DNA from: an uncultured archaeon
GTDB lineage: Archaea; Altiarchaeota; Altiarchaeia; IMC4; SCGC-AAA252-I15
NCBI GenBank assembly: GCA_902384455.1
Contig: CABMCB010000059.1
Span: 35,938-99,937, forward strand
DNA: 64,000 bases
Direction of reading: 5' to 3'
Shown here: positions 15,004-57,808 of the stretch, in pieces
How the letters are laid out: every line of letters begins with the position of its first letter
How positions within the stretch are numbered: position 1 is the stretch's first letter
Position numbers and translations under genes: made by a program
Notes under the pieces: model-generated
The model's database searches: none
What the model saw: the letters and a program-made list of their open reading frames with translations, nothing else
Told to the model about the DNA's origin: nothing

Positions 15004-15006
15004 GCG

Positions 15007-15324: not shown

Positions 15325-15330
15325 AAATAT

Positions 15331-16699: not shown

Positions 16700-16704
16700 C
16701 TACA

Positions 16705-16791
16705 TTTGCCCGTCAGACACGCCTTGGCAGAGCACCGGTGTCAGACATGCGCCGTTCCAATTGGACCCTCTGCTCGGCGAACATCAGCAAA
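16705..16791 (-). ncRNA. Unknown structured RNA
   Basis: Nested pairings TTTGCT/GGCAAA, CGCC/GGCG, GCAGAG/CTCTGC. Confidence 0.3.
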
Positions 16792-16806
16792 TCAGCTATT
16801 AAGTTT

Positions 16807-16881
16807 TGGACGACCCGTCGGGACTTGAACCCGAATCCTCGGTTTAGGAAACCGTAACTCTTTCCATTGAGCTACAGGTCG
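16807..16881 (-). tRNA. tRNA-Arg(CCT)
   Basis: CGGT-TTCCTAA-ACCG, CCA. Confidence 0.88.
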
Positions 16882-16882
16882 T

Positions 16883-16957
16883 TGGTAGGCCGTGGAGGAA
16901 TCGAACCTCCATTCAGCGCTTAGAAGGCGCTAGTCCTGTCCGTTGAACGAACAGCCC
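16883..16957 (-). tRNA. tRNA-Arg(TCT)
   Basis: AGCGC-CTTCTAA-GCGCT, CCA. Confidence 0.9.
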
Positions 16958-16964
16958 ACAGAAA

Positions 16965-17044
16965 AGTTGCCGACCGCCTTGTCCGTCTGGCTCCACAGGT
17001 TTTCAAGACCCGTGCCGGGAGTCGAACCCGGTTTTGTCGGACTT
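16965..17044 (-). ncRNA. Circularly permuted tRNA mimic A (YrlA-like architecture)
   Basis: CCGAC - T arm CCGGG-TTCGACT-CCCGG - closed 7-bp acceptor CACGGGT-CTTGAAA-ACCTGTG - GA - D arm GCC-AGACGGACAA-GGC - G - GTCGG. Confidence 0.75.
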
Positions 17045-17102
17045 GTCGGGCGCGTGGCTGGCCGTGTCACAGCCCTTTGGACTCGCGTTATCCGACTGAA
17101 AT

Positions 17103-17176
17103 TGGCAGGACGCGTAGGAATTGAACCCACTCCGTTCGGGTTGGAGCCGAACATGCTACCGTAACACTTGCGACCT
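17103..17176 (-). tRNA. tRNA-Trp(CCA)
   Basis: TTCGG-CTCCAAC-CCGAA, CCA. Confidence 0.88.
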
Positions 17177-17226
17177 GTAGTGCTCAAGAGCACACTGGGT
17201 GAGTTAGTGTGCCCTTGAGGTAAGAC

Positions 17227-17302
17227 TGGAGCGTGATACCAGATTCGAACTGGTGCGTACTGGGTGGAAGCCAGTCATGCTAGCCGCTAACATCAATCGC
17301 GC
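17227..17302 (-). tRNA. tRNA-Gly(TCC)
   Basis: ACTGG-CTTCCAC-CCAGT, U73, CCA. Confidence 0.88.
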
Positions 17303-17311
17303 TCGAAACTA

Positions 17312-17581
17312 TTAAACTGTTGGTGCCGGAGCAAGTGCTGCTACGACGGTTGCATCTACCGCGTCAACTGCTGCTGCGTCTGCCGCGTCCTTCGCTGCTA
17401 CTGCTGCTGCTACAGCGGTCGGGCCATTTTCAGCAATCAACTTAGCGATGTCTGCTTGCAACTTTGCCATGCTGTCTGCGAATGCCATCATTTCTCTCCG
17501 TAGTGCGTGAAGTAACAACCTGTCTTGATGCGATAGTTCGACTACTAACTTCGGGTTAGGTGATTGGGCTTTTCCAAACAT
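17312..17581 (-). CDS. Ala-rich hypothetical protein
   Basis: ORF between Gly tRNAs; alternative internal start MMAFADS with GGAG RBS. Confidence 0.5.
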   Translation of the reverse strand: MFGKAQSPNPKLVVELSHQDRLLLHALRREMMAFADSMAKLQADIAKLIAENGPTAVAAAVAAKDAADAAAVDAVDATVVAALAPAPTV

Positions 17582-17603
17582 TCGAACCTCGCTTTCAATT
17601 TTT

Positions 17604-17677
17604 TGGAGCGACGTACCAGAATCGAACTGGTGCCCGAACCTTGGCAAGGTTCTGTTCTACCACTATACCAACATCGC
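17604..17677 (-). tRNA. tRNA-Gly(GCC)
   Basis: GAACC-TTGCCAA-GGTTC, CCA. Confidence 0.9.
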
Positions 17678-17680
17678 TCG

Positions 17681-18022
17681 TTACAAACCTCTGAACATCA
17701 CCATGGCCTTTTCGTGGAGCACCAACTGCTCTGGTGTCATCTGGCCCACAACCTTGCGGAAGCGGCCCATCTTTCTGTTCACGTTCGGCCTGGTCGGGAT
17801 GGTCGTCCTTACTGCTAGAGGACCGTCACCGTTCTGTTGCTCAACGAACTGTCTCGCCTGTGCTTCAGAACTAAATCTCTTCTCAACAATTTCTCCGGTG
17901 TTGTTGTCCAACTTCGTCGCGGAGTGTCCGAGCCAGTTCCACTTGTCTCCGTGGTTGCGCTCGTGCGGCAATCTTTTGCGGTCTTCATTTTCATGCTTCG
18001 GACGTTCGATTCGCATAGTCAC
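17681..18022 (-). CDS. Hypothetical protein
   Basis: 113 aa ORF filling gap between tRNAs. Confidence 0.55.
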   Translation of the reverse strand: MTMRIERPKHENEDRKRLPHERNHGDKWNWLGHSATKLDNNTGEIVEKRFSSEAQARQFVEQQNGDGPLAVRTTIPTRPNVNRKMGRFRKVVGQMTPEQLVLHEKAMVMFRGL

Positions 18023-18029
18023 CTTAAAA

Positions 18030-18103
18030 TGGTACCCGTGGTCGGAATCGAACCGACGCTACGTCCGTGAGAGGGACGCGTTCTACCACTAGACTACATG
18101 GGC
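18030..18103 (-). tRNA. tRNA-Glu(CTC)
   Basis: CGTCC-CTCTCAC-GGACG, CCA. Confidence 0.88.
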
Positions 18104-18111
18104 ACAGAAAA

Positions 18112-18186
18112 TGGCGGAGATAGCGGGAATCGAACCCGCACTTTGCCCGTGACAGGGGCATGTCGTTACCAACTGACCCTATCTCC
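18112..18186 (-). tRNA. tRNA-Asp(GTC)
   Basis: TGCCC-CTGTCAC-GGGCA, G73, CCA. Confidence 0.88.
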
Positions 18187-18193
18187 GCGAAAC

Positions 18194-18267
18194 TGGAGCT
18201 TCGTAAAGGAATTGAACCTTTACCTCATCCTTACCAAGGATGCGTTCTGCCGTTGAACTAACAAAGC
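18194..18267 (-). tRNA. tRNA-Thr(GGT)
   Basis: CATCC-TTGGTAA-GGATG, CCA. Confidence 0.9.
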
Positions 18268-18277
18268 GTAAAACTTA

Positions 18278-18356
18278 TCCGGTGTGCTACCGTTACACTA
18301 TAGCAACGAGCGGCTTTACCCGTTCCCGCCTGTGGGATTCGAACCCCTCTACCGGA
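18278..18356 (-). ncRNA. Circularly permuted tRNA mimic B
   Basis: TCCGGT - T arm GGG-TTCGAAT-CCC - imperfect closed stem - TA-GTGT-AACGGTA-GCAC D arm - ACCGGA. Confidence 0.65.
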
Positions 18357-18360
18357 AGAT

Positions 18361-18434
18361 TGGAGCACCGTCGTGGAATCGAACCACGGCTTCTGCGCTA
18401 CGAGGGCAGCTTCATGCCACTAGAACAACAGTGC
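18361..18434 (-). tRNA. tRNA-Thr(CGT)
   Basis: CTGC(C)-CTCGTAG-(C)GCAG with C31:C39 mismatch, CCA. Confidence 0.8.
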
Positions 18435-18442
18435 AAAACTTT

Positions 18443-18548
18443 TGGAGGAAGTCCCTCTCACTTGGCCCATCCGGCGCAGGGCACCCCGAAGGGCTGGAGG
18501 TCCGCTTTCGACTGTGAAGAAGAAGCGTACTTACCGTTGAAGACTTCC
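18443..18548 (-). ncRNA. Unknown CCA-ended structured RNA
   Basis: Terminal helix GGAAGTCTT/GGGACTTCC then TCCA; internal hairpins CGCTT/AAGCG, CCC-TTCG-GGG, GCCC/GGGC. Confidence 0.5.
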
Positions 18549-18570
18549 TTCGCCTTGCGGCGAGTAATCA

Positions 18571-18646
18571 TGGAGCACATCGCTGGATTCGAACCAACGT
18601 GTCGAAGGTACAAGCTTCGCATACTAGACCGCTGTATGAGACGTGC
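18571..18646 (-). tRNA. tRNA-Thr(TGT)
   Basis: CGAAG-CTTGTAC-CTTCG, CCA. Confidence 0.85.
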
Positions 18647-18652
18647 TCGATA

Positions 18653-18728
18653 TGGCGTATCCCCTAGGATTTGAACCTAGGACCCTTCGGTTAACAGCCG
18701 AATGCTCTGGCCGCTGAGCTAGGGATAC
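18653..18728 (-). tRNA. tRNA-Asn(GTT)
   Basis: TTCGG-CTGTTAA-CCGAA, G1:C72, CCA. Confidence 0.9.
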
Positions 18729-18733
18729 AAAGA

Positions 18734-18821
18734 TGGCTGGAGCAGCAGGACTCGAACCTGCAATGTGCTTTCGCACTGCCTGGGTAACAGCCAGGTGCTG
18801 TACCAATTGAGCCACACTCCA
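18734..18821 (-). tRNA. tRNA-Asn(GTT) with long variable arm
   Basis: CCTGG-CTGTTAC-CCAGG, variable hairpin GTGC-GAAA-GCAC, U1:A72, G73, CCA. Confidence 0.8.
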
Positions 18822-18831
18822 GTAGAAATTT

Positions 18832-18906
18832 TGGAGCACCCACTCGGAATCGAACCGAGATAGTCAGTTTCGAAGACTGATGCCCTATCCGTTGGACGAC
18901 AGGTGC
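18832..18906 (-). tRNA. tRNA-Arg(TCG)
   Basis: TCAGT-CTTCGAA-ACTGA, CCA. Confidence 0.88.
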
Positions 18907-19223
18907 TCGTGTGTTCTGATGCGATGACAATTTGCACAAACGACATCGCATTTCGAAATTTCTTCCAGTAACTTCTCCATTGAGGAGTTGTGATAGCCGC
19001 TGGAAATGTTGAACTTCTTTACTCCGCGAACATGGTCAAAATCCATGCACACAGATGGGAACTTGTTCCCGCAATCAGCACACGCGACGTTCTTAGCTGG
19101 CTCGATTATCTCCGCGTACAGTCTTTCTTTCCGTTTCGCGGATTTGTCGATGTAATACTGCTTGTGGTTTTTGTAATGCCTTCGGCCACAAGCTTTAGCC
19201 AGTTCTGAATTAGCGTACGCCAT
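18885..19223 (-). CDS. HNH endonuclease
   Basis: CADCG...CMDFDHVRG...EISKCDVVCANCHRIRT. Confidence 0.85.
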   Translation of the reverse strand: MAYANSELAKACGRRHYKNHKQYYIDKSAKRKERLYAEIIEPAKNVACADCGNKFPSVCMDFDHVRGVKKFNISSGYHNSSMEKLLEEISKCDVVCANCHRIRTHEHLSSNG

Positions 19224-19227
19224 AAAT

Positions 19228-19304
19228 TGGTAGACCGTGGTGGATTTGAACCAACCATTATAGCCTTCGCAGGGCTATGTCCTATCCAGTTGAACGAACA
19301 GTCC
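19228..19304 (-). tRNA. tRNA-Arg(GCG)
   Basis: TAGCC-CTGCGAA-GGCTA, CCA. Confidence 0.82.
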
Positions 19305-19342
19305 ACATTAAATCGTACTTTCGAAAATTTGTCAAGAACTAT

Positions 19343-20017
19343 TTAGTTCAGTACTTCAACAACTGCGGTTCTCATCTGGATAGATGAAAGCGCTGAGCCG
19401 GTCACAGCCTGCAACAGCAGGTTGTTCGTGCTCGCTGCGGTCAAGTTAACCGCTATGCCAGCCGCTACGTTGGTGTCCTGATACTCTGACATCGGAGCGG
19501 TTGCTGAAGCACCAATCAAGATTGCCAAAGCGCCGTGTCCTTCAAGCGTACCGGATGCACCGGTTGAAACTGTGTAAATGTGGCCTTCGAAGTTCCATGG
19601 GAAGTTCGTTTGTGAGGCCGTTGTCGCTTGGCTCGTCGCGGTCAAAACCGTCTGAGTGAAAGCGCCAGAGAAACCTAGCTGAATACCAATCGTCGGCGTC
19701 TGTGCGCCAGCCGTGGTGTAAATGCCCCACATGCGTACGCGAAGAACCTTTCCGGCGACGTTCATGAACGCGGTCGGTAGCGCCAATGTGGCGAACGTTC
19801 CCGTGCCGTTCAATGCCGTCAGTGCAGCCGGAGCCGCGTTGTAAACAATCGCTGCGCCGCCTAGAGCGTAGTTCAAACCGTTCCAGAAGTACTTGCCCGA
19901 CTTCTGCGTCGTATCGTACCAGTAATCTCCGTCAATCGGAGAAGCCGGTGCAACACCGGACGGAATGTTCAAGGGCGCTGCTGCCGCTGTTGAGTTCGGC
20001 AATGTGAGAAATGACAT
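19343..20017 (-). CDS. Putative virion structural protein
   Basis: 224 aa, PSGVAPASPIDGDYWYD fibre-like motif, Ala/Thr/Gly-rich; GAGGAG RBS. Confidence 0.55.
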   Translation of the reverse strand: MSFLTLPNSTAAAAPLNIPSGVAPASPIDGDYWYDTTQKSGKYFWNGLNYALGGAAIVYNAAPAALTALNGTGTFATLALPTAFMNVAGKVLRVRMWGIYTTAGAQTPTIGIQLGFSGAFTQTVLTATSQATTASQTNFPWNFEGHIYTVSTGASGTLEGHGALAILIGASATAPMSEYQDTNVAAGIAVNLTAASTNNLLLQAVTGSALSSIQMRTAVVEVLN

Positions 20018-20100
20018 TTCTCCTCTCTTCGGCTACGCGCCGATATCACTGATGATGCAACTTGTACAAGATGAAAAGACTGATTGCTACACCAAGGACG

Positions 20101-20346
20101 TTACACACTGTTCGGGTCACTGCCAGCGCTAGGTCCAGTCTTTGGTGGTTCATTCTTCTCTTCTTTGCGCTTGGTCCGTTGCTCGTACCATTTGCGCCGT
20201 AAATCCAGATATTCCTTCTGCGCCGCGAGACTTTCCTGACTAACTTTCAGGCTCTCTTCAGCCATGCGCTTCATTGCGTGGTCGTCGATGTAGATTGCGA
20301 CCAGGATGAATATTTCTAAGACAAGAAGTGCATCCTGCCAAGTCAT
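20101..20346 (-). CDS. Single-TM hypothetical protein
   Basis: MTWQDALLVLEIFILVAIYI followed by coiled coil. Confidence 0.55.
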   Translation of the reverse strand: MTWQDALLVLEIFILVAIYIDDHAMKRMAEESLKVSQESLAAQKEYLDLRRKWYEQRTKRKEEKNEPPKTGPSAGSDPNSV

Positions 20347-20361
20347 AGTCACCTTCAAAAT

Positions 20362-20437
20362 TGGTACCCAGTGAGTGAATCGAACACTCCCCACCTCTTT
20401 GTAGGAGAGGCGCATACGACCAGTTTGCTAACCGGGT
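20362..20437 (-). tRNA. tRNA-Val(TAC), C33 variant
   Basis: CCTCT-CCTACAA-AGAGG, A73, CCA. Confidence 0.8.
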
Positions 20438-20745
20438 AATGCCTTAGCGATTTGTTGTTTCTTGATTCTCGCGTAAGGACGAATCTTTTTCAAAAACTCT
20501 CTTGCATTTCTGTTTGACACTATCCATCGCCAAACCTTTTTGTTGGTTCGTTTATCAGATGTGTGAATAGTGCCGAACTTAAAAAGGCGTTGAACGAACT
20601 TCAAAACTTTCACGTCTGTGTTCGTTATCGTTGCAATCGTTCGAAAATAATACTTGCCGTTCTTCGTTGCCTGATATTTCGCGAAACGGCAATGGCCTTC
20701 ACCATCGAACAACCCACTCACATAAGCTAAGTCGATTTTTCTCAC
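20428..20745 (-). CDS. LAGLIDADG homing endonuclease
   Basis: LAYVSGLFDGEG; FLKKIRPY..IKKQQ. Confidence 0.85.
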   Translation of the reverse strand: MRKIDLAYVSGLFDGEGHCRFAKYQATKNGKYYFRTIATITNTDVKVLKFVQRLFKFGTIHTSDKRTNKKVWRWIVSNRNAREFLKKIRPYARIKKQQIAKALPG

Positions 20746-20764
20746 TTAGTGCCTTTCGTAAACT

Positions 20765-20838
20765 TGGTGGACCGCCGGAGAGTCGAACTCCGTCTTGATG
20801 CGTGCAAGGCAACCGTATTCCCGTCCTACTCGCAGCCC
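20765..20838 (-). tRNA. tRNA-Ala(TGC)
   Basis: G3:U70, loop CTTGCAC, A73, CCA. Confidence 0.82.
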
Positions 20839-20846
20839 ACATAAAT

Positions 20847-20920
20847 TGGTTGCGGATGTCGGAGTCGAGCCGACCAGCAGTGCTTATGAGACACCGTACC
20901 TCACCCGAGGTGTACCCGCA
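20847..20920 (-). tRNA. tRNA-Met(CAT), divergent
   Basis: GGTGT-CTCATAA-GCACT; T loop CTCGACT; atypical D arm; CCA. Confidence 0.75.
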
Positions 20921-20929
20921 AAAGAAAAT

Positions 20930-21005
20930 TGGTAGCGTCGGCGGGATTCGAACCCGCGTGAGGACCTTGAAAGGGTCCCATCCTAGGCCACTAGATGACA
21001 TCGCC
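20930..21005 (-). tRNA. tRNA-Glu(TTC)
   Basis: GGACC-CTTTCAA-GGTCC, CCA. Confidence 0.9.
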
Positions 21006-21118
21006 ACAAAAGAAGCTAGAGCATGGCTTCTTTACAACTTCAGCTTACGCAAGGCTCCCGGCTGAAGCGCCCATACAGCGGGTGTTTACCGAGTAAACAA
21101 CCCACATATGGGTTAAAT

Positions 21119-21203
21119 TGGTACCCCGTGAGAGATTTGAACTCCCATGGCTGTTAACCGACGCGTTCTAAGCGCGTTGTGTCTGCCGTTCCACCAACAG
21201 GGC
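21119..21203 (-). tRNA. tRNA-Leu(TAG)
   Basis: ACGCG-CTTAGAA-CGCGT, long variable arm, CCA. Confidence 0.88.
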
Positions 21204-21214
21204 ACTGAAACTTA

Positions 21215-21274
21215 TGGAGCGGTCACTACCTGTGTGACAGGCACCTCCCCGGGCACTGCCCGGGAGCACCGCTC
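21215..21274 (-). ncRNA. Unknown CCA-ended two-hairpin RNA
   Basis: GAGCGGT/ACCGCTC closing TCCCGGG/CCCGGGG and TGCCTGT/ACAGGTA; ends TCCA. Confidence 0.45.
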
Positions 21275-21276
21275 GC

Positions 21277-21459
21277 TTACTTACGCATGTCTCGCACATG
21301 CTGGTAATATGAAAGCTGGTCCACCGGACGGTCGTGGTCATGACGACGGTCTTCGATGTCCGCGCTCATCGGATAATCTTTCGGGACTTGAAATCCCTTT
21401 GACGTATCCTTCGCGTCTCCGACAACTTTCATGCCTAGCTTCGGCTTATCGTCGGGCAT
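21277..21459 (-). CDS. Small hypothetical protein
   Basis: 60 aa, GAGGT RBS. Confidence 0.55.
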   Translation of the reverse strand: MPDDKPKLGMKVVGDAKDTSKGFQVPKDYPMSADIEDRRHDHDRPVDQLSYYQHVRDMRK

Positions 21460-21471
21460 ATTACCTCAAAC

Positions 21472-21546
21472 TGGTAGTCTCTCTGTGACTCGAACACAGG
21501 TCTCTCGCTAATCAGGCAAGCATCCTAGCCGCTGGACGAAAAGACT
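21472..21546 (-). tRNA. tRNA-Ile(GAT), U37 variant
   Basis: CTTGC-CTGATTA-GCGAG, CCA. Confidence 0.82.
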
Positions 21547-21554
21547 ACTGAAAT

Positions 21555-21645
21555 TGGTGGATGCGGAATGATTCGAACATTCTATGTGCCACAAGGACAT
21601 CCTGTTTTACAGACAGGTACGACCCGCCGTCTTCGCCGCACATCC
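21555..21645 (-). tRNA. tRNA-Tyr(GTA)
   Basis: CCTGT-CTGTAAA-ACAGG, long variable arm, A73, CCA. Confidence 0.85.
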
Positions 21646-21656
21646 ACTGAAACTAA

Positions 21657-21743
21657 GGGAACCCACGGGTCACTCACCCGCGCCAATCACGGGTCCGGTA
21701 CCGGATATCCGTAATCGTTCAATCTACCTCGAACTGCGTTCCC
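21657..21743 (-). ncRNA. Unknown four-way-junction RNA
   Basis: GGGAAC/GTTCCC closing GTTCGA/TTGAAC, GATTACGG/CCGTGATT and CGCGGGT/ACCCGTG. Confidence 0.45.
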
Positions 21744-21751
21744 ACGAAACT

Positions 21752-21827
21752 TGGTGGGTCGCCAGCGACTTGAACGCTGAACTTGCTCCTTAAAAGGGAG
21801 AAATGTTGCCGCTAACACCTGCAACCC
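21752..21827 (-). tRNA. tRNA-Lys(TTT)
   Basis: CTCC-CTTTTAA-GGAG, CCA. Confidence 0.85.
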
Positions 21828-21860
21828 ACGATAATCGGTAACGTTCTACCGATTGAAACT

Positions 21861-21935
21861 TGGTGGACTACCAGGGATTCGAACCCTGACCAAACTCGTT
21901 AAGAGCGAGCTATGCAACCGTAACACCTGTGGTCC
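21861..21935 (-). tRNA. tRNA-Lys(CTT)
   Basis: GCTCG-CTCTTAA-CGAGT, CCA. Confidence 0.88.
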
Positions 21936-22083
21936 ACTGAAAAATCTGACAGCTTGTTGTCATGGAACGGACTTTAATCGGAGTTCTACCGATGCTGTCT
22001 ACGCCGTCTCACGTTGTATCCCCGCGTGAAGACTGTGTTCACGCCTCATGTTAAGCGACGACACTGTCTCGTCGCGGGAAGAT

Positions 22084-22172
22084 TGGTACTCGATGAAGGA
22101 ATCGGACCTTCGTGCAAGCGTAATCTACGCCGACTCGTTATAAGCGAGTGCCGCAAACCATCGCAATCGAGT
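22084..22172 (-). tRNA. Atypical tRNA with TAT anticodon and long variable arm
   Basis: Acceptor ACTCGAT/ATCGAGT, D arm GCGA-TGGT-TTGC, ACTCG-CTTATAA-CGAGT, variable hairpin GCGTA/TACGC, T loop TCCGATT, ACCA. Confidence 0.75.
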
Positions 22173-22178
22173 AAAAAG

Positions 22179-22287
22179 TTGTCCGGAGCGTACGCTTTCG
22201 GCGTCTCACCCGCCATCACGAATGCCGCGTCAACGGCACTGACTTCCCCTCGTTAGACTCGGTTGACGCCGGTCGCGAGTCGGACAA
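22179..22287 (-). ncRNA. Unknown structured RNA
   Basis: TTGTCCG/CGGACAA terminal helix, inner GCGTCAAC/GTTGACGC. Confidence 0.4.
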
Positions 22288-22289
22288 AT

Positions 22290-22368
22290 TGGTGCGCCGC
22301 GTGAGATTCGAACTCACATGTGGTCACGTTTTAAGTGTGCCGCGTATGCCGCATTCCGCCAGCAGCGC
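22290..22368 (-). tRNA. tRNA-Leu(TAA) lacking long variable arm
   Basis: Leu-type D arm GGCGGAATGCGGCATACGC, loop CTTAAAA, ~6-nt variable region, A73, CCA. Confidence 0.75.
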
Positions 22369-22595
22369 TAAACTCTTGTGCTCGTCGCGGAAGCTAGCGT
22401 ATCGCTGGTTCCGGGCTGATACGCAACCGTACCTGAAGCACAAACATCGCTAGGGTCAACAACCCATTGCTTCCATGCCAGCCGGGTTGCAACCCGTAGG
22501 CACTTCAGATGTGGACTTCTACCACGCGAAAACTTATGAGACAGCCCTGGCCGAAGCCACTCCGGGTAATACCTTAGTCTTACGTCTCAAACTTT

Positions 22596-22656
22596 TTCGG
22601 TGTGCCCACTACACTACTTCTGGCTAGGCCAGCACGGAGTCGAACCGTCTACCGAA
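22596..22656 (-). ncRNA. Circularly permuted tRNA mimic C
   Basis: TTCGGT - ACGG-TTCGACT-CCGT - CTGGC-CTA-GCCAG - TA-GTGT-AGTGG-GCAC - ACCGAA. Confidence 0.7.
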
Positions 22657-22659
22657 TCT

Positions 22660-22746
22660 TGGTCGCCCACACAGGACTCGAACCTGTACGCTTTTCACGG
22701 CACCGGGTTTTGAATCCGGCATGTCTGCCAGTTCCATCAGCAGGCG
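22660..22746 (-). tRNA. tRNA-Leu(CAA)
   Basis: Loop TTCAAAA, long variable arm, CCA. Confidence 0.88.
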
Positions 22747-22805
22747 AAATTCTCCCGGCAAAGGCCGGGAAGGGGTGGTTACCTCAGCGCTAAGCGCTCC
22801 TAAAT

Positions 22806-22879
22806 TGGTCCCTGCTGTTTGAATCGAACAAACACGACCGGCTTTTCAGACCGGGATGCGACCACTACATCAAACAGGG
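22806..22879 (-). tRNA. tRNA-Phe(GAA)
   Basis: CCGGT-CTGAAAA-GCCGG, CCA. Confidence 0.88.
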
Positions 22880-22880
22880 T

Positions 22881-22955
22881 TGGGGCGAACGTCGGGATTC
22901 GAACCCGAACCGGCGGATTCACAGTCCACCGTGCTGCCGTTACACTACACACGCC
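22881..22955 (-). tRNA. tRNA-His(GTG)
   Basis: GTGGA-CTGTGAA-TCCGC, G-1:C73, CCA. Confidence 0.9.
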
Positions 22956-49499: not shown

Positions 49500-50673
49500 T
49501 GCAAAGGGACGTCCGTGGAGGAAGCATTCATACAGTGCCGGTAATGTTTTTGACCAATCCCCCATGAAGTACTACTATCAGAAGGTCCTGGGCTGGAAAG
49601 AGTTCGACAACAAGGCAAGCTTCTTCTTCGGCAGAGCACTGGAAGAGAGCATTCAGTTCCACCACGAACACGGCGGACAGGGCGCTGTAGAAGATTTCAA
49701 GAGACGTTGGGCTGCGCACAAGGACCGCGAGAACGTGCGCTACACCGACAAAGAAAAGAACTGGGCGACCTGTTTGCAGATGGGACAGGAAATGCTCAAG
49801 CTGTACATAGTAGTGCAGCCGTCTCTTCCGATTCCGTTAGGCGGCGGAGCGGTATTTCAGAGAGAATATTCGAAGGAGGTTTTTCCAAATGACCCAAACT
49901 ACGGAGGAATTGAAGACGCAGGAAAGCTGGACATCATCGCGTATGCTGATGCAAATCACGAGCGACTGGCGAAGGTCGATATCAGACAGTTCACCGGAGG
50001 GATACGTCCTGTCATTATCGACATCAAAACCGGCCAAGTGGACTTCCCCGAACAGCAGGGAATGGCTGCTTTCGACGGCCAACTACGACGTTACTCCTGG
50101 CTGTCAGGAATACGGGACGTTGCTTTTCTGTGGTTCAAGAAGTCAGGTCTCGGATATAAGAAAGGCTATTCTGCAACTGTTATCGAAACAGTCGGAAGCT
50201 TCCAAGCCGGACAAGAGTGCGTAATCGCGAGGGTTGACGAGAACCACGCGTGGATTGTCTACAACGATTTCATGGTTGAGGAAATGGAGCGTGCTCAGGG
50301 CAAGAAGGGCAACAAGCTGGACACGACCAACGCAGCAGAAGAACGAGTCATGAACTGGCTTCACCAGCGCGGAACGTACACGCCACTTGACAGACTGACC
50401 AGGCAGCGTCTACAATTCAATGCAGGATATGTAACTCCGAAGTCAGCAGAAGATGCCGGAACGAATGCGGCGAGACAGATTGTTTCCATCGTCAACGCGT
50501 GGAACACGAAGTCTTGGCCGAACAATTTCGGCGTAAGATACCCTCGCGACGATAGAAACGACGCCTACTTTCGAGCGTTCGTCCTGGGCGATGAGACGTA
50601 CAAGCAGCAAAACTTTACCAAGTCAGACGAAGATGCATTCGATGACTTATTCCGAGAGGACGACGAACAATGA
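49480..50673 (+). CDS. PD-(D/E)xK (RecB/Cas4-like) exonuclease
   Basis: SYS....SP..YYY, GKLDI, IIDIKTG, QLRRY. Confidence 0.8.
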   Translation: MAYLYVNAKGRPWRKHSYSAGNVFDQSPMKYYYQKVLGWKEFDNKASFFFGRALEESIQFHHEHGGQGAVEDFKRRWAAHKDRENVRYTDKEKNWATCLQMGQEMLKLYIVVQPSLPIPLGGGAVFQREYSKEVFPNDPNYGGIEDAGKLDIIAYADANHERLAKVDIRQFTGGIRPVIIDIKTGQVDFPEQQGMAAFDGQLRRYSWLSGIRDVAFLWFKKSGLGYKKGYSATVIETVGSFQAGQECVIARVDENHAWIVYNDFMVEEMERAQGKKGNKLDTTNAAEERVMNWLHQRGTYTPLDRLTRQRLQFNAGYVTPKSAEDAGTNAARQIVSIVNAWNTKSWPNNFGVRYPRDDRNDAYFRAFVLGDETYKQQNFTKSDEDAFDDLFREDDEQ

Positions 50674-50960
50674 AGATGAACATATTCGCGGCGAACGACA
50701 TAGCGGACACAGATGCGTTTCGCGGCAGAGCGGCGAGGGGCAACAGAGCAATAAGCCTGATTGACCCCGAGGCCGACCTGATTGCGGCGATTGACGAAGA
50801 AACGATGTCGCTAGACGAGATACTTGTAACGCGGTTCACGGAATTTTTAGGCAACAACCGCCTGACCCTGGACACGTTCGAGCAGCAATCCGAAGACGAG
50901 CAAGAACGCCTTCGCAAAGAGTTCAAAGAGATTAACTGGGACCTAGAAGAACTACAATAG
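50670..50960 (+). CDS. Acidic hypothetical protein
   Basis: 96 aa. Confidence 0.5.
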   Translation: MKMNIFAANDIADTDAFRGRAARGNRAISLIDPEADLIAAIDEETMSLDEILVTRFTEFLGNNRLTLDTFEQQSEDEQERLRKEFKEINWDLEELQ

Positions 50961-50963
50961 CCT

Positions 50964-51398
50964 ATGGCTGAATCAGCATTCTCGACGCTACGCACCAAGG
51001 TAGACGGCAGCGACAACTTCGTAATCGGCAGCAGGGTTATGAAGACCGCAGGGGCTACCAGGCATGCCGAACGCATGCGTACGGTACCCGTGTGGGCGCT
51101 CGATGATGAGAAGATTAAGGCATACGTTCAGCACAGGTTCCCGAATATGTCTTCGGACAAGGACCAGCAGCAGCTAGCGGCCAGGACCGTCCGTGCAATT
51201 TACCTCTACTACCGCAGCGGACTGACCGAGGGGCAGGTCGCGCACGAACTAGGAACGTCAGTCAGCGCGGCTAGACAACTGCTTTACCGCATCCGCAAGG
51301 GCATGGCGGTGCCTTTGAAGAAGGTTGGGCGTCCTAAAAAGGGCGTTATGATACCCGCCACTGATGGGAGAGGCGACGACAGCCATATTACCCTTTGA
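50964..51398 (+). CDS. Sigma region-4-like HTH DNA-binding protein
   Basis: LYYRSGLTEGQVAHELGTSVSAARQLLYRIR. Confidence 0.65.
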   Translation: MAESAFSTLRTKVDGSDNFVIGSRVMKTAGATRHAERMRTVPVWALDDEKIKAYVQHRFPNMSSDKDQQQLAARTVRAIYLYYRSGLTEGQVAHELGTSVSAARQLLYRIRKGMAVPLKKVGRPKKGVMIPATDGRGDDSHITL

Positions 51399-51428
51399 GA
51401 TGGATACCCGAGAAACAAAAGGAAAGGA

Positions 51429-52043
51429 ATGGAAATTAGGAAAGTCCTGGAGCACACATGCTTCCAGGCCACGGGCAAAGGCCCGTTCTCCCCGAGTAAG
51501 TGCCGTTGCCGTAAGTATGTGAGCATGGATGAAGCCAGAACGAAGGTCGCTCTAGGCGTTTCGCAGTATGTTCACGTCGGAAACAAGAGGCTCGTGTCAG
51601 AGGAAGTCTGCGAGCACTGCACAGAAGAAACAAAGAAGTCTTGCGATGTCTGCAAGGGAACCAAGGCGTACGAGCGGATTTACGTTCTGCCGATTTACGG
51701 TGATGACATCATATCGACCGTGACGACGAGCGGAATGCGCAACCTGACCGTCAAGGTCAAGAAGTCGCCGACGATTGAAAGCAAGCACGTCCTTCGCGGG
51801 ATTGAAGACAGTCCTCGCGGCCAAGCAGCACGAGACCGATGGGACGAATATCACTTGCTGACCATGAAGCAGCGTGTTAGACTACTGCTTCAGAACACGG
51901 TCACGGCACCAGAGTTCGACGCGGTATGGAACGCGTGGATTCTCGACATGAGTAAGCCGTTTCCGCTAGAGTTTAGACGTGAACCGGTGGATGACCGACG
52001 CACGGGAGAGGGAAGGCTTTATGACTATGGAAGACACGTCTGA
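51429..52043 (+). CDS. Hypothetical protein with CxxC motifs
   Basis: CEHC, CDVCKG. Confidence 0.55.
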   Translation: MEIRKVLEHTCFQATGKGPFSPSKCRCRKYVSMDEARTKVALGVSQYVHVGNKRLVSEEVCEHCTEETKKSCDVCKGTKAYERIYVLPIYGDDIISTVTTSGMRNLTVKVKKSPTIESKHVLRGIEDSPRGQAARDRWDEYHLLTMKQRVRLLLQNTVTAPEFDAVWNAWILDMSKPFPLEFRREPVDDRRTGEGRLYDYGRHV

Positions 52044-52653
52044 CATGACACTGGACCGGTTTTCAACCGAGCCGCATCCCGAGCTAGTTGAAGCCGTCGA
52101 GGTCATCAAGTCACAACTGTCTCAGGCTCCGCCGCCAGAAATGGAAGCCAAGCCGACAGAGGAAGGCGTAGCAGCGTCAATCGAGGCCCTGGCCGAGATT
52201 CGCAGCCGTTCTTTCTCAGGCCGCAACCTGCACCTGGGCAAGATGGTCAAGTGCCATGTGTGCGGACAACGCGGCAGAGAGACCGACCACAAGCACGAGC
52301 AGAAGTTTGCCAAGCGCTGGATTGTCGTGAACGGCAAGAAGGTCTACACCGAAGAGGAACTGATTGCAGGCCGCACCGTGGAAACTCACGCCGTGATGCC
52401 TACGATGCGAAACATTCTAGGCGCGTCCAGGTTCAAGGGCAAGCGAAAGAAGCCGCGCCCGACCTGGCGACAGAATGAAATGATTCAACTGGTTCGCTCC
52501 CTGGTTCCCGACGAGTTCACTCCGGAAGAACTGGAAGCTGCCAAGAAAAAGGCTCGCCGGATGCTGGCGAAGAAGTACGGACGTCACGGATATCTGCCGC
52601 CGAAGTGGCACGCACTAAAGGCCGAGCGGCTGAAGAAAGAGGTGAAAGCGTGA
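52021..52653 (+). CDS. Hypothetical basic protein
   Basis: CHVCG, Lys/Arg-rich C-terminus. Confidence 0.55.
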   Translation: MTMEDTSDMTLDRFSTEPHPELVEAVEVIKSQLSQAPPPEMEAKPTEEGVAASIEALAEIRSRSFSGRNLHLGKMVKCHVCGQRGRETDHKHEQKFAKRWIVVNGKKVYTEEELIAGRTVETHAVMPTMRNILGASRFKGKRKKPRPTWRQNEMIQLVRSLVPDEFTPEELEAAKKKARRMLAKKYGRHGYLPPKWHALKAERLKKEVKA

Positions 52654-52931
52654 ACATGATTCTGTTCTTCGCTCTCTACGCACTCAGCCTGCTGATTGTG
52701 TACCTGGTGGGCGGACGTCGAGGCTACAGTCTCGGAGCACACCGCATCGTTGAGGTGGAATACAAAAACCTTTTGGCGAGCGGACTGAGCGAACGAGAGG
52801 CCATGTCGTTCTTAGCGGCGGCGCTGAATCATCCCGGTACTACGATTCGAAAAGCGACCGTTCCTTTGGTGCCTGTGACCGAAGAAAAGAAAGACGAAAA
52901 AGTAGTTGACACAAAAGACGAATCAGAGTAG
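52650..52931 (+). CDS. Single-TM hypothetical protein
   Basis: N-terminal hydrophobic helix. Confidence 0.5.
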   Translation: MNMILFFALYALSLLIVYLVGGRRGYSLGAHRIVEVEYKNLLASGLSEREAMSFLAAALNHPGTTIRKATVPLVPVTEEKKDEKVVDTKDESE

Positions 52932-52934
52932 ACT
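52906..52934 (+). promoter_or_regulatory. Sigma70-type promoter
   Basis: TTGACA-N17-TAGACT; predicted +1 near 52941, the first base of hairpin RNA 1. Confidence 0.7.
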
Positions 52935-52940
52935 CAAAAC

Positions 52941-53012
52941 GTGGCTGGCTATGGGAAGGCTTCCTTCTAAACCTTTCATTGAGAAAAAATAGCTCTCTCG
53001 CTTCCCGGCCAC
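52941..53012 (+). ncRNA. Structured RNA motif, copy 1
   Basis: GTGGCTGG/CCGGCCAC, internal loop CTAT/GCTTC, GGGAAGGCT/AGCTCTCTC, TTCT/AGAA. Confidence 0.7.
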
Positions 53013-53056
53013 ATTTGCATCACCTAAGACGAACGTAGTGCCTATAGTTAAAAAAC

Positions 53057-53129
53057 CCGGACGGCTATGTGGAGGCTTCCTTCTAAACTCTACTGCCAAC
53101 AGAAAATAGCTTTCGCGCTTTCCGTCCGG
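53057..53129 (+). ncRNA. Structured RNA motif, copy 2
   Basis: CCGGACGG/CCGTCCGG, CTAT/GCTTT, GTGGAGGCT/AGCTTTCGC, TTCT/AGAA; covaries with copy 1. Confidence 0.7.
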
Positions 53130-53150
53130 AATCTTCTGAAAGGAAACACA

Positions 53151-55355
53151 ATGTTGAACGAAGAAATCTTGCTACGCCGAAAGAATCTAATCACCATTCC
53201 GGACTCAGCAGGCCGCACGAACGTCGGCGTCATCGCGGCTGCTAACCTGAACCTTCAGGAATACGGCTACACTCTGTCAGCCGAAGCCATCCGCACGTTC
53301 ATCAACACGAACTATCTCGTGTCCTCAGCCATTCTGTCTCAGGTCCAGCAGTTCGCACGCAAGGCCAAGGGCCTAGGCGACGGGCTGGCTCACCCGATGT
53401 ATCCCAACTTTCCACAGCAGGTCGCAGAGGCCGCATGGTCAGAGCTATACATCAACGCCATTCTGCACTACTTCACCGTGTTCGTTGCTGATGTCACTGG
53501 CGCGTCGAACGTGGTTTACATGCCGCGCTACGTCAAGAACTATCGCGGACCGTTGACGAAGTCGAACGATGTTCCGCTGACCGTTCTGAACGTCATCGCG
53601 GCTCGTGAAATCGGTCCGATTATGCGCAAGCTTCAGACACAGCTTGTGACGTCGAACACGTCCGTGTCCGCACAGGACAAGGCCGACATCCGCGAACTAG
53701 TAGACATGGGATTCCTGATTGACCGAACTGTTGAAATCCCGAACAAGGAAAACCGTGCGGTCTACGCGGGTGCGCTCGTTTCTCACCGCGATGCAATTTT
53801 GGAAGACTGGTTCAAGACCGGCACCGACGTGCTACGTCTAGCGACCGCCATGTCTGACGGCGACGTCTCGCTGGCGGAGAACACGAAGTTTCGCTCGTTC
53901 AAGCGGTTCGAGCGTCGTCTGCTGATGGGCCTGCTTCGCCGGGACAAGAACATTCAGGAATCATTCGCACGCGACCGTGAGCGGTTCAAGCGGTTGGCGG
54001 AGCGTCTGCACCCGAACGAGTTCAAGGGCATGGAGTGCCGCAACCTTCGAAACGCGTTCAAGATTCTAAAGGCTGGCGCACGTCTGGAAACGTTCGCTGG
54101 CACCGTTGAAGGATTGCTGTCAACCGGACAGGTGGCTAACGCTGCCGGTCTGTTGACGACCCGACCGGGTGAGTTCGCTCGCCGGTTGGACCATCTGCTT
54201 CGCGCAGTCATCGGGCAGTCCAACAACGCTTTCGAGCGTAAGGACTACACGCAGGAAATCATCGACCTGTTTCTGAACGTCGTGGACAAGGTTTCCACGC
54301 CTGTGCTGCTGCAGGTGTTGACGCACTTCAAGAACCGCAACAAGGACTCGATGCGCGTCGTGATGCCGAAGGGCGAGGTTTCGAAGATTTATGTTCTGGA
54401 CGACGAACGCGGCGGAATTAGCTCGTCTCTGTTGACCGATTTGATTCTCGGCATCGAGGCATCGCTGGTCTCTCGCTTCTCAAACCTTGACGATTTGGGC
54501 AAGGTCTACATCGACCCGAAGCTGAAGAACTATCTGGTGCCGTTCAGCCAGCGTTCTGCATCGGCTTCTCTTCGAACGATTACCCGTGGTTCAAAGGTTC
54601 CGTTCGCAACCGATAAGGACACGATTCGTTTCTTCATTCACTGGAAGAACACCGACGCTAAGAACGATTACAACCGTGGCCGCGTTGACCTGGACCTGTC
54701 TGCAGTGATGTACTCTGCCGACTGGAAGAACCAGGGCAATGTGTCCTACTTCAATCTGCGCCGTGGCGAGTATTCAAGCTACTACGGCAAGCCGACGTAC
54801 ACGGCGGTTCACTCCGGTGACATTACCGACGCACCTCGCGGCGCGGCGGAGTTCATCGACGTGGACATCCCGAGCATGCTTCGCACTGGCGTTCGCTACA
54901 TCGCGATGTCCGTGAACATGTTCGCCGGTCCGGAAGGACTGCACCAGGTTCCGGAGTGCTTCGCAGGCTGGATGCTCCGCAACGAACCGCAGTCTGGCGA
55001 AGTCTTCGAACCGAAGACGGTAGCGGACCGCATCGACATCACCTCGCAGGCATCGAAGATGGTCGTTCCGATGGTCATCGACCTTCAGAACCGGGAAATG
55101 ATTTGGGTTGACTCGGAAGTTTCGGGTGTGCCCCGCTTCGGTTCTAACGTCGCCAACCAGGCGGACAAGCTTGCAACCGTGGCGCAGGCGTTCACGCGCA
55201 TCAGCAAGACGAATCTCTACGACCTGTTGAATCTTCACGCACAGGGTCGCGGAGTGTTGGTGCACAGCGAGCGCAACGCTGACACGGTGTTCTCAACCGA
55301 GAAAGGATTCCAGTTCGATTTGGCAACAATCGCTTCAGAGTACCTAGGCGACTAA
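53151..55355 (+). CDS. Large helical protein with C-terminal TerD-like domain
   Basis: Start ATG 53151 (AAGGA RBS); YPNFP, TDVLRLA..MSDGD, RPGEFARRLD; TerD-like VDLDLSA...HSGDITDAPRGAAEFIDVD. Confidence 0.75.
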   Translation: MLNEEILLRRKNLITIPDSAGRTNVGVIAAANLNLQEYGYTLSAEAIRTFINTNYLVSSAILSQVQQFARKAKGLGDGLAHPMYPNFPQQVAEAAWSELYINAILHYFTVFVADVTGASNVVYMPRYVKNYRGPLTKSNDVPLTVLNVIAAREIGPIMRKLQTQLVTSNTSVSAQDKADIRELVDMGFLIDRTVEIPNKENRAVYAGALVSHRDAILEDWFKTGTDVLRLATAMSDGDVSLAENTKFRSFKRFERRLLMGLLRRDKNIQESFARDRERFKRLAERLHPNEFKGMECRNLRNAFKILKAGARLETFAGTVEGLLSTGQVANAAGLLTTRPGEFARRLDHLLRAVIGQSNNAFERKDYTQEIIDLFLNVVDKVSTPVLLQVLTHFKNRNKDSMRVVMPKGEVSKIYVLDDERGGISSSLLTDLILGIEASLVSRFSNLDDLGKVYIDPKLKNYLVPFSQRSASASLRTITRGSKVPFATDKDTIRFFIHWKNTDAKNDYNRGRVDLDLSAVMYSADWKNQGNVSYFNLRRGEYSSYYGKPTYTAVHSGDITDAPRGAAEFIDVDIPSMLRTGVRYIAMSVNMFAGPEGLHQVPECFAGWMLRNEPQSGEVFEPKTVADRIDITSQASKMVVPMVIDLQNREMIWVDSEVSGVPRFGSNVANQADKLATVAQAFTRISKTNLYDLLNLHAQGRGVLVHSERNADTVFSTEKGFQFDLATIASEYLGD

Positions 55356-55357
55356 CA

Positions 55358-56038
55358 GTGTCATTACTCATCGGAGTCAAAAGCTGTCAGAGAGACCGCA
55401 CCGAAGGCTTCCACCAAGCAATACGGGAAACCTGGGGTCGCGGTCTTTCCAATTTACGATTCTTTTTCGGCGGAGCACCCATGGGAGTTTCCACCGACGA
55501 AGTTCTGCTGAACTGCAAGGACGACTACGAAAGCCTGCCGTACAAAACGAAGGCGATGCTTGAGTGGTTTCTGAACTGCACAACCGAGCAGTTCATTTTC
55601 CTTTGCGACAACGACACGTACGTGAACTACCGGAAGCTGTCCGAACTGCCGTACGCGAAGTACGACTACAGCGGCAAGTCTTCTCTCTGGCCCCCGAACT
55701 CCAAGCTAGGCGTTACGTTTCAGTACAAGGACGGACGCGGCAACACGATTGAAAACTGTCACCCATGGGCGTCAGGCGGCTACGGATATTTTCTTTCACG
55801 CAAGGCGGCGGAGATTATCGTCACGTCCGGCGAGCCTACGTCGTGGGCTGAAGACCTGTGGGTCGGCCAAGTCCTAGGCCCTAGAATGGACATCCTGAAA
55901 TACGACTATCCCGAGTATCACAACAACGTCACCTGGCACTGGTGGAAGCCGGTCGGCGGCAAGATTACACCGTATGAATTGCTGGAAGTCTACCGCAACG
56001 GCGGCGTTCCACAGGGCAAGAAATGGTACATGCGATGA
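55358..56038 (+). CDS. Glycosyltransferase, GT31-like
   Basis: AIRETW, DDYESLPYKT, CDNDTYV, ASGGYGYFLSR, EDLWVG. Confidence 0.8.
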   Translation: MSLLIGVKSCQRDRTEGFHQAIRETWGRGLSNLRFFFGGAPMGVSTDEVLLNCKDDYESLPYKTKAMLEWFLNCTTEQFIFLCDNDTYVNYRKLSELPYAKYDYSGKSSLWPPNSKLGVTFQYKDGRGNTIENCHPWASGGYGYFLSRKAAEIIVTSGEPTSWAEDLWVGQVLGPRMDILKYDYPEYHNNVTWHWWKPVGGKITPYELLEVYRNGGVPQGKKWYMR

Positions 56039-56718
56039 AGATTGCACTCGTCACAATCGCGACCGGCAAGGTCTACCAGGAATATGCACAGCAGATGTTC
56101 AACTCTGCTCGGAAGTTTTTTCCGAAGCATGACCAGTTCGTCTTCACGGACAACGTCGAGAGCATGACCATTACGTGGGGCGACCAGAGTCGCGGCGCTT
56201 TCAAGACTGAAGACCTAGGCTACCCGAGAGCCACGCTGATGCGCTATCACCAGATTATACGCGGCGCATGGCGGTTCAAAGAATACGACCAGATGTTCTA
56301 CTGTGACGCCGACATGGAGTTCGTCGCGCCGGTCGGAAATATTTTCTCTGACGGTCTCGTGGCAACGCTTCACCCGGGATTCGTCGGCACGAAGGGTTCG
56401 CCGGAGACACGCATAACGTCCACGGCGTACTGCCGGGACAATCTGGCATATTACTGCGGCGGCTTTCAAGGCGGCGATGCTAGAACATATCTGGACGCAG
56501 CAACGCAGATGGCCTTCAACATCGACCAGGATGAAAAGAACGGCGTCATGGCGGTGTGGCACGACGAGTCACACTGGAACAAATATCTCTCGGACAACTG
56601 TCCGGGCAAAGTTTTAACGCCGAGCTACTGCTTTCCGGAAGATTCAAACATTCCGTACAAACCAATTTTGGTCGCGCTAGATAAGAGGAAGCGCGGCAAT
56701 CACCCGAGGTACAAATGA
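56035..56718 (+). CDS. Glycosyltransferase family 6 (alpha-1,3-Gal/GalNAc transferase)
   Basis: IATGKVY, FVFTD, CDADM, YYCGGFQGG, AVWHDESHWNKY. Confidence 0.88.
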   Translation: MKIALVTIATGKVYQEYAQQMFNSARKFFPKHDQFVFTDNVESMTITWGDQSRGAFKTEDLGYPRATLMRYHQIIRGAWRFKEYDQMFYCDADMEFVAPVGNIFSDGLVATLHPGFVGTKGSPETRITSTAYCRDNLAYYCGGFQGGDARTYLDAATQMAFNIDQDEKNGVMAVWHDESHWNKYLSDNCPGKVLTPSYCFPEDSNIPYKPILVALDKRKRGNHPRYK

Positions 56719-56972
56719 ATCGAAGAAACTTTCTAGGACTGCTAGGCGGCGGAGTCGCGGCGGCTATCGCGGTGCCGTTCCTTCCGAAGCTGAAGACAGT
56801 CGGCTATCGCACGTACATAATGGGCAAGGATTCCGTCATCGACATGGCCGTCGAGAATCCGAACACGCCTCTCGTCTTCACAGACATCAGCAACTGGAAG
56901 TCGCACAAGGTTAAATACACCGTGACGCTACCGCCGAAGACGAAGTATCGCCTGAGGTACATCGACGTATGA
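56715..56972 (+). CDS. Small protein with twin-arginine signal
   Basis: MNRRNFLGLLGGGVAAA. Confidence 0.6.
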   Translation: MNRRNFLGLLGGGVAAAIAVPFLPKLKTVGYRTYIMGKDSVIDMAVENPNTPLVFTDISNWKSHKVKYTVTLPPKTKYRLRYIDV

Positions 56973-57808
56973 TAACCGTGATGCTGATGGGCGGCATGGG
57001 CAATCAGCTATTTCAGTGGGTCATGGGCCTGGAACATTCAAGACGCTTCAACACGGAACTGGTCCTGGATACCACGCACCTACGCGGCAAGCGGAGCTAT
57101 GCTCTCGACCAGTGGGAAGGAATCAACGAGAGAACGGTGACCGGAAGCCAGCGCTCGGTGACAGAGCAGACTCTGCCGTACAGTCAGCACACCGTGAACC
57201 AGATTTCAGACGGCAGCGTGCTGCAAGGATACTGGCAGAGCGAGAAATATTTCACGAGCGTTCAGAATGACTTCAGACATCTGCTGGTGCCGAGAGACAA
57301 GTCGTTCATGAACATGGACGTGTTCAACGCCATCGTGAAAGAACCGCTGTCGGTTTCTGTGCACGTTCGCCGAGGCGACTATCTGGTCAGTCCGCACAGA
57401 GAGTTCCACGGCGTGCTCGACATGGACTATTACACCAGGTCGATGAACCTGATGAAGAACAAGCTGACCCGAATTGAAACGCGGCGGACCGGACTATTGC
57501 AGGAGAAGGTCACAGAAGAGACAGTCGCACCGAAGTTCTTCGTGTTTTCCGATGACCCCGAGTGGACACGCAGCAACTTCACCGGCAAGGACATCGTGCA
57601 CGTTCAACCGAGCACAGAATCCATCGACATCTATCTGATGGGCATGTGCAAGAATGCAATCGTCGCAAACAGTTCGTTCAGTTGGTGGGGAGCGCAGCTA
57701 GCCAAGAACGACGGACAGATGGTAGTCGCGCCGTACAAGTGGTTCGGTAAGCCGGAAGACAGAGGAAACGCCCGGGACATCGTTCCGGAAAGGTGGTTTA
57801 GACAGTGA
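56969..57808 (+). CDS. Alpha-1,2-fucosyltransferase (GT11)
   Basis: GGMGNQLFQ, GYWQSEKYF, VHVRRGDY, FSDD, NSSFSWW. Confidence 0.9.
   Translation: MITVMLMGGMGNQLFQWVMGLEHSRRFNTELVLDTTHLRGKRSYALDQWEGINERTVTGSQRSVTEQTLPYSQHTVNQISDGSVLQGYWQSEKYFTSVQNDFRHLLVPRDKSFMNMDVFNAIVKEPLSVSVHVRRGDYLVSPHREFHGVLDMDYYTRSMNLMKNKLTRIETRRTGLLQEKVTEETVAPKFFVFSDDPEWTRSNFTGKDIVHVQPSTESIDIYLMGMCKNAIVANSSFSWWGAQLAKNDGQMVVAPYKWFGKPEDRGNARDIVPERWFRQ

Follow-up and report, generated by a model that had tools for sequence, protein, structure and literature searches.

Two tandem hairpin RNAs and the gene of a 734-amino-acid (aa) protein directly downstream of them, found in a 64,000-nucleotide (nt) stretch of contig CABMCB010000059.1 from an uncultured archaeon of the Altiarchaeota (the whole stretch being referred to below as the window), probably form a two-part RNA–protein module that works like the Ro60/Y-RNA particle. 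The hairpins are members of a structured, widespread and covarying RNA family which is linked exclusively to genes of one protein family. The protein has a predicted fold with a TerD beta-sandwich at its C-terminal side, and its best structural match is Ro60. The source contig, 99,937 bases long, is one of 103 in an assembly of 2.41 Mb; the window itself appears to come from a large phage, the contig having apparently been binned into this assembly. The features of the locus are as follows:

52906 to 52934, + strand: sigma-70-type promoter-like site TTGACA-N17-TAGACT (10 of 12 matches)
52941 to 53012, + strand: hairpin RNA copy 1, with an outer helix P1 of 8 base pairs (bp), an internal loop CUA / UUC and an inner helix P2 of 10 bp; at its apical end the invariant UCCUUCUA, then a short A-rich apical part
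53057 to 53129, + strand: hairpin RNA copy 2, of the same architecture as copy 1 and with different stem sequences
53140 to 53146, + strand: Shine-Dalgarno-like AAGGAAA, 4 nt upstream of the ATG, read from the sequence
53151 to 55355, + strand: open reading frame (ORF) of 734 aa (P0001), matched over its full length by phrog_33734 (E-value 2.7e-98)
53151 to 54560, + strand: N-terminal helical (alpha-solenoid) domain, residues 1–470
54567 to 55190, + strand: TerD-like beta-sandwich, residues ~473–680, followed by C-terminal helices

The hairpins and the promoter-like site are located in the 219-nt gap between the end of the preceding ORF (52605–52931), whose stop codon is overlapped by the -10 hexamer, and the ATG at 53151. 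The promoter-like site was the sole one on the + strand within 52300–55700, and promoter-like hexamers were, as judged by eye, equally near the first hairpin in the related loci L001, L006, L012 and L033. A preliminary description made from the sequence had placed the start of copy 1 at the predicted +1 and the end of copy 2 close to the ATG of a 734-aa protein; both placements proved accurate, copy 1 beginning 7 nt past the -10 hexamer and copy 2 ending 21 nt before the ATG. The Shine-Dalgarno-like AAGGAAA is not part of hairpin 2 and could pair with UUCCUU in the conserved core. The database gene call for the protein (P0002, 762 aa) begins at 53067, at an ATG within hairpin 2; because the N-termini of homologues fit the ATG at 53151, this deposited start is probably 28 codons too long.

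Structure of the hairpins and their RNA family

The two elements of ~72 nt share, as originally described, the blocks GGCTATG, AGGCTTCCTTCTAAAC, A-rich/ATAGCT and CGCTT(T)CC, and their outer stems indeed covary (GTGGCTGG/CCGGCCAC versus CCGGACGG/CCGTCCGG), with two-sided changes at three positions and a one-sided change at one. Their pair alignment had 83% column identity. The 16-mer AGGCTTCCTTCTAAAC occurred exactly twice in the 64 kb, with 0.27 occurrences expected even when three mismatches were allowed. Folding of the + strand gave -24.0 kcal/mol for copy 1 (z -2.34 against shuffles) and -29.2 kcal/mol for copy 2 (z -4.19), while the folds of the - strand were weaker (z -1.03 and -1.75, respectively). 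A third helix (UUCU with AGAA), which appeared in single-sequence folds, was unsupported by RNAalifold and was rejected.

The upstream regions of 36 viral loci encoding relatives of the protein were used as the seed for the RNA family, the shared blocks being visible there by eye in 1–4 tandem copies. The MAFFT alignment of 28 elements from different loci contained an 8-bp outer and a 10-bp inner helix: 92.8% of the pair cells were paired, compared with 32–48% after sliding of the 3' partner, 14 of the 18 pairs changed on both sides and none of 500 shuffles reached the covariation score. RNAalifold, which was not given the helices, returned the same two, with compensatory changes in 13 of 16 pairs. 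A covariance model (R1) was then built from the elements and applied with a site threshold of E≤0.01. In the alignment of 115 distinct R1-aligned copies, which was fitted to the model and hence leans towards it, 92.0% of the cells were paired (37–50% when slid) and 15 of 17 pairs were compensatory. The consensus reads 5'-N5-GG-CUA-U[N7]CU-UCCUUCUA-(variable)-AG[N7]R-N-UUU-CC-N5-3', the basal 8-bp stem having G-C closing pairs and being followed by an asymmetric internal loop, CUA on the 5' side versus UUU/UUC on the 3' side. The string UCCUUCU was present in all 115 copies, which had themselves been chosen by R1. Both window copies were recognized by the model, copy 1 with 68.5 bits (E 5.8e-15, 52942–53011) and copy 2 with 66.3 bits (E 2.2e-14, 53058–53128), and represent the minimal form of the family, with short apical loops and without a tRNA-like domain.

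The simple element corresponded to no characterized family: in Rfam 15 it had no match, whether taken from positions 50000–56000 of the window (E≤10) or from eight related loci (E≤1). Viral contigs did not contain the exact 26-nt pattern, and blastn of 52600–53400 against phage records gave no match.

Longer members of the family carry additional apical modules. The YrlA model of Rfam matched three long elements at 44.3, 37 and 34.3 bits, below its gathering score of 69; the matching part is a permuted tRNA-like module consisting of a T arm, a loop-closed acceptor stem and a D arm, and the alignment deletes the Rsr-binding stem of the YrlA model itself. A T-loop motif was present in 14 of the 25 long elements examined, two of them bacterial. 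Since the stem is conserved and the tRNA-like modules are exchangeable, the RNA family follows the modular logic of Y RNAs with another stem motif; for the Y RNAs, a conserved protein-proximal stem and an exchangeable module are described in the available part of PMC4201824. A complete tRNA in normal order (Rfam tRNA 47.1 bits, 2688–2758) was held by the apical part of one viral element (L017, 2656–2788). Among the tRNA genes of two other viral loci there were a skipping-rope RNA (L014, 7443–7509; 44.3 bits, gathering score 36.7), a sub-threshold match to drum RNA (L014, 2159–2264) and a transfer-messenger RNA gene (L029, 457–856).

Linkage of the RNA to one protein family

The search of the whole 2.41-Mb assembly with R1 returned only the two sites of the window, and 60 other genomes of the host phylum gave no match to either the RNA or the protein. 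Occurrence of the motif at the loci of homologues, anticipated in the preliminary description, was general among the viral relatives: each of the 36 loci had at least one R1 site and some had up to 7. All of these 131 sites were on the strand of the gene, 81 upstream and 50 downstream of it, with none inside.

The one-genome-per-species scan yielded at least 587 confirmed relatives among 600 stretches. Among the matches listed, the carrier genera include Paenibacillus, Bacillus, Brevibacillus, Priestia and Niallia, and the carrier phyla include Acidobacteriota, Planctomycetota, Armatimonadota, Verrucomicrobiota and relatives of Cyanobacteria. The bacterial locus set consisted of the best 80 of the at least 587 relatives; an R1 site was present in 75 of them, every site being on the + strand. 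Of the five misses, L063 and L084 had weaker sites and L040 and L057 were without upstream sequence. The fifth, from Bacillus toyonensis (L051, 3001–5112), was the sole complete locus of the 80 without an RNA element, and its gene is packed closely, on one strand, with genes for an L,D-transpeptidase and a DUF2935 protein. Across five carrier genomes searched in full (4.7–7.9 Mb), all six R1 matches adjoined the gene. Unlike at Ro60/Rsr loci, no rtcB/rtcA or other conserved neighbour was present in six bacterial loci examined, where the surrounding protein genes were unrelated to one another; the conserved unit is, therefore, the RNA together with the gene.

Distant homologues from cultured phages (25–32% identity) had weaker copies beside the gene: three in XacN1, two each in RcXuper and Weasels2, and one in LpeD. 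In three divergent phages (L121, 1901–2211; L119, 4591–4950; L122, 1492–1570) the core UCCUUCUA was replaced by the variant UACUUCUA, and the divergent phage elements also differed in the 3' loop letters, which hints at co-variation of RNA and protein. Genes annotated as nucleotidyltransferases were observed beside the homologue in two phages (L120, 110–973, ORF399 of XacN1; L121, 5054–6043, gene 9 of RcXuper). Ankyrin repeats were met with in three cases only, as N-terminal extensions of ~375 aa in the family members P0247 and P0257 and as a separate gene directly upstream in a Paenibacillus locus (L050, 1731–2807); this association may indicate a protein partner. For the locus of Priestia megaterium (L065), contigs of 8096 and 2745 nt with ~96% identity span the RNA element and the gene; assembled from two RNA-Seq runs of one sample, with possible DNA carry-over and no information on ends, strand or level, they are counted as no evidence for a discrete RNA. 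No contig of the metatranscriptome run X7 covered 2664–3015, a result without weight either way.

Elsewhere in the window, 34 tRNA genes are packed into less than 10 kb on the - strand (13373–22954), including such unusual anticodons as Ile(tat) and Phe(aaa). Directly 3' of the ORF, three glycosyltransferase genes follow on the + strand (55358–57805), being Galactosyl_T/Fringe-like, GT6-like and GT11-like, two of which have the PHROGs label moron/auxiliary.

The 734-residue protein

The protein belongs to a family of 3064 representatives at 50% identity; phrog_33734, by which it was matched, is a group of unknown function. The TerD domain named in the preliminary description was not recovered from the sequence itself, with no Pfam match of any kind, TerD and TROVE included, even at E≤10. 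The assignment was upheld by the predicted fold and by the relatives, 5 of 35 of which matched PF02342 (best E 6.7e-6), while TROVE (PF05731) was absent from all 35 at E≤1. The sequence search of the PDB gave no match, and the profile search returned TerD 2kxt alone, at E 0.63. The AlphaFold2 models were confident, both for the full-length protein (predicted local distance difference test, pLDDT, 82.2; predicted template modelling score, pTM, 0.72) and for residues 1–470 (pLDDT 86.7), and the predicted fold contains the TerD beta-sandwich.

Classical TerD proteins, such as Klebsiella TerD (2kxt) and its Streptomyces counterpart (3ibz), are stand-alone polypeptides of ~190 aa encoded in ter operons together with TerC, TerB and TelA. 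Unlike in this family (PF02342), the domain described here forms the end of a 700-aa protein which also has a helical, RNA-binding-like domain, and its gene lies outside any ter operon and is tied to a structured RNA. In a survey of jumbo phages, stand-alone TerD is reported for actinobacterial phages and ROT/TROVE proteins are mentioned separately, as far as the available part of that source goes (PMC7824862).

In the predicted structure, residues 157–446 align with the TROVE ring of Ro60/Rsr, and the structural comparison with Ro60/Rsr proposed at the outset gave Rsr and phage Ro60 as the best matches. In the viral structure library, a TROVE-domain phage protein came first after four family members (E 0.033, probability 1.00, template modelling score 0.36). 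Foldseek of the N-terminal model against the PDB gave nothing with E≤1e-3, and Ro60 was not among the top 50. Profile comparison by hhalign reached a probability of 0.2% against two single TROVE proteins and of 1.6% over 60 columns for A2 against a 24-sequence TROVE alignment, the latter being colinear with the structural alignment and not significant. Residues 1–480 matched only unnamed or TerD-named viral clusters in the ESM Atlas, all with scores <0.9. Searched against 1.84 billion representatives, the N-terminal profile had only family members among the top 150 listed, the distant tail, where TROVE proteins might sit, being out of view of this listing.

The protein differs from Ro60/Rsr in several ways: the sequence has no TROVE signal, the place of the C-terminal vWA domain with its MIDAS site, which is absent, is taken by the TerD beta-sandwich, and there are ~156 extra residues at the N-terminus. 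TROVE was found neither in the assembly of the window nor in 60 other genomes of the phylum. A canonical TROVE/Ro60 protein was co-encoded in two of the five carrier genomes tested (G062, L123; G063, L124), and this coexistence with the TerD-family gene indicates a separate system and not a replacement of Ro60.

Mode of action and alternatives

The closest known system is Ro60/Rsr with its Y RNAs, as represented in the available parts of the sources by YrlA/YrlB (PMC4201824) and by Ro60 of Thermus phage phiLo with Yrl1/Yrl2 (PMC12135203). Both systems consist of a helical-repeat protein and one to several non-coding RNA genes directly adjoining on the same strand, and both are found in bacteria and large phages alike. 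In relatives the apical module is often the permuted tRNA mimic known from YrlA, carried likewise on a conserved basal stem with a variable apex. With the Rfam families of Y RNA and YrlA (RF00019, RF02553) the elements share the adjoining partner gene, its strand and the modularity, but no match reached the gathering score with the Ro-binding stem included, and the motif GGCUAU / UCCUUCUA / UUUCC is neither the Ro-binding helix nor GNCGAAN0-1G. The module is probably Ro60/Y-RNA-like in its working, yet lacks the signature of TROVE in the protein sequence, a vWA domain and the Ro-binding motif in its RNA. The literature searched gave neither a description of the RNA nor a link between the protein family and Ro60/TROVE, and related loci might be listed in the supplementary tables of PMC4201824 and PMC7824862.

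The likeness to Ro60 and Y RNAs suggested in the preliminary description is supported by the covariation of the RNA, the exclusive linkage to the gene, the TerD fold and the structural match to Ro60. Transcription, processing, binding and cellular role are what we infer from these data, and for the binding of RNA by protein the evidence that bears on it is the genomic linkage. In the window, a transcript would begin at ~52941 from the promoter at 52906–52934 and carry the two structured RNAs, followed by the mRNA of the 734-aa protein. The latter would combine a helical Ro60-like (TROVE-like) N-terminal domain with a TerD beta-sandwich in place of vWA and bind the conserved basal part of the RNAs that are transcribed with its mRNA or beside it. 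The RNAs, either excised from the leader or still attached, would serve as regulators or tethers of the protein, and the variable apical module, which is a tRNA mimic in many relatives and a short A-rich loop here, would give a second function. Since some copies in bacteria abut the start codon or precede U-runs or terminator-like hairpins, binding beside the start codon probably feeds back on the translation of the protein itself.

The strongest competitor of the Ro60/Y-RNA-like reading is that the hairpins act only in cis, either as an operator for autorepression or as a tandem riboswitch through which a small ligand would control the TerD-family gene. The arrangement resembles the autoregulatory leaders of ribosomal-protein genes and other protein-binding 5' leaders, in that the mRNA of the presumed binder carries a structured RNA in its leader, sometimes abutting the start codon, and several observations count in favour of such a leader. 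Most matches in the 80 bacterial loci fall in the ~200 nt that precede the gene, two copies being usual. Many Paenibacillus loci have a second element ending 5–9 nt before the AUG, with no recognizable Shine-Dalgarno sequence, and in other loci a U-run or a terminator-like hairpin comes after the element. The invariant UCCUUCU could pair with Shine-Dalgarno sequences, among them AAGGAA at 53140–53145, and in the window no terminator was found between the hairpins and the ORF. However, unlike in autoregulatory leaders, copies are also arrayed and located downstream of the gene (50 of the 131 viral matches, and matches in the bacterial loci L041, L052 and L080), and a locus may have as many as 7 of them, with tRNA genes in between. 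Exchangeable apical modules, among them YrlA-type tRNA mimics, would be needless for a leader or an aptamer, and what the RNA accompanies across phyla is one protein family and not a pathway. We consider a purely cis-acting leader unlikely; its autoregulatory variant would, moreover, still imply binding of the RNA by the protein and so overlaps with the explanation favoured here.

A far less probable explanation is that the elements are decayed genes of tRNA origin, or signals for the processing of phage tRNA operons (such as RNase P/Z or integrase sites), placed near the gene by accident. Elements in several viral loci do stand directly 3' of tRNA genes, and some contain tRNA-like parts or a whole tRNA. 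The copies of the window, however, are ~30 kb away from its tRNA array and are not called as tRNA by ARAGORN, the bacterial copies lie away from tRNA genes and always beside the protein gene, and the core GGCUAU...UCCUUCUA...UUUCC has no counterpart in tRNA, the tRNA model of Rfam missing the simple elements. That they are chance hairpins or a generic repeat without specific function (terminators, or sequences like repetitive extragenic palindromes or miniature inverted-repeat transposable elements) is effectively refuted, despite there being only two copies in the genome and a modest z-score (-2.34) for copy 1 alone, by R1 E-values of 1e-14 to 1e-15 in the window, by hundreds of covarying copies across phyla, all on the strand of the gene, and by their absence from 60 control genomes.

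A wider version of the Ro60-like interpretation, possible but on balance doubtful, is that a second ancient branch of Ro60 exists in many bacterial phyla and large phages, with a ring derived from TROVE, a TerD domain sensing Ca2+ or nucleotides and Y-like RNAs of its own. Because the strand UCCUUCUA is invariant and anti-Shine-Dalgarno-like and the elements of many phages carry a permuted tRNA mimic, such a particle could act on the translation apparatus. If so, it would be a decoy or gate for nucleases and for enzymes that recognize tRNAs or the 3' end of 16S rRNA, or else a sensor-controlled device for RNA quality control carried by phages with tRNA sets.

To our knowledge, Ro60 with its Y RNAs is the only well-studied ring protein with an activity set by modular non-coding RNAs, and the only such particles that we know of in bacteria are those of TROVE+vWA proteins. 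A family that has so far carried only the labels 'TerD family', 'cytoplasmic' or 'hypothetical' is given a function that can be tested and a defined RNA partner, and a new class of structured RNA, absent from Rfam, is added with a clear consensus and hundreds of examples. Its carriers include culturable Priestia, Paenibacillus and Brevibacillus, as well as phages of Rhodococcus, Rhodobacter and Lactobacillus. The RNA family would also be a second, independent case in which permuted tRNA mimicry has been grafted onto a presumed protein-binding stem, which bears on the reasons for the tRNA mimicry of Y RNAs and for the presence of such modules among the tRNA genes of large phages.

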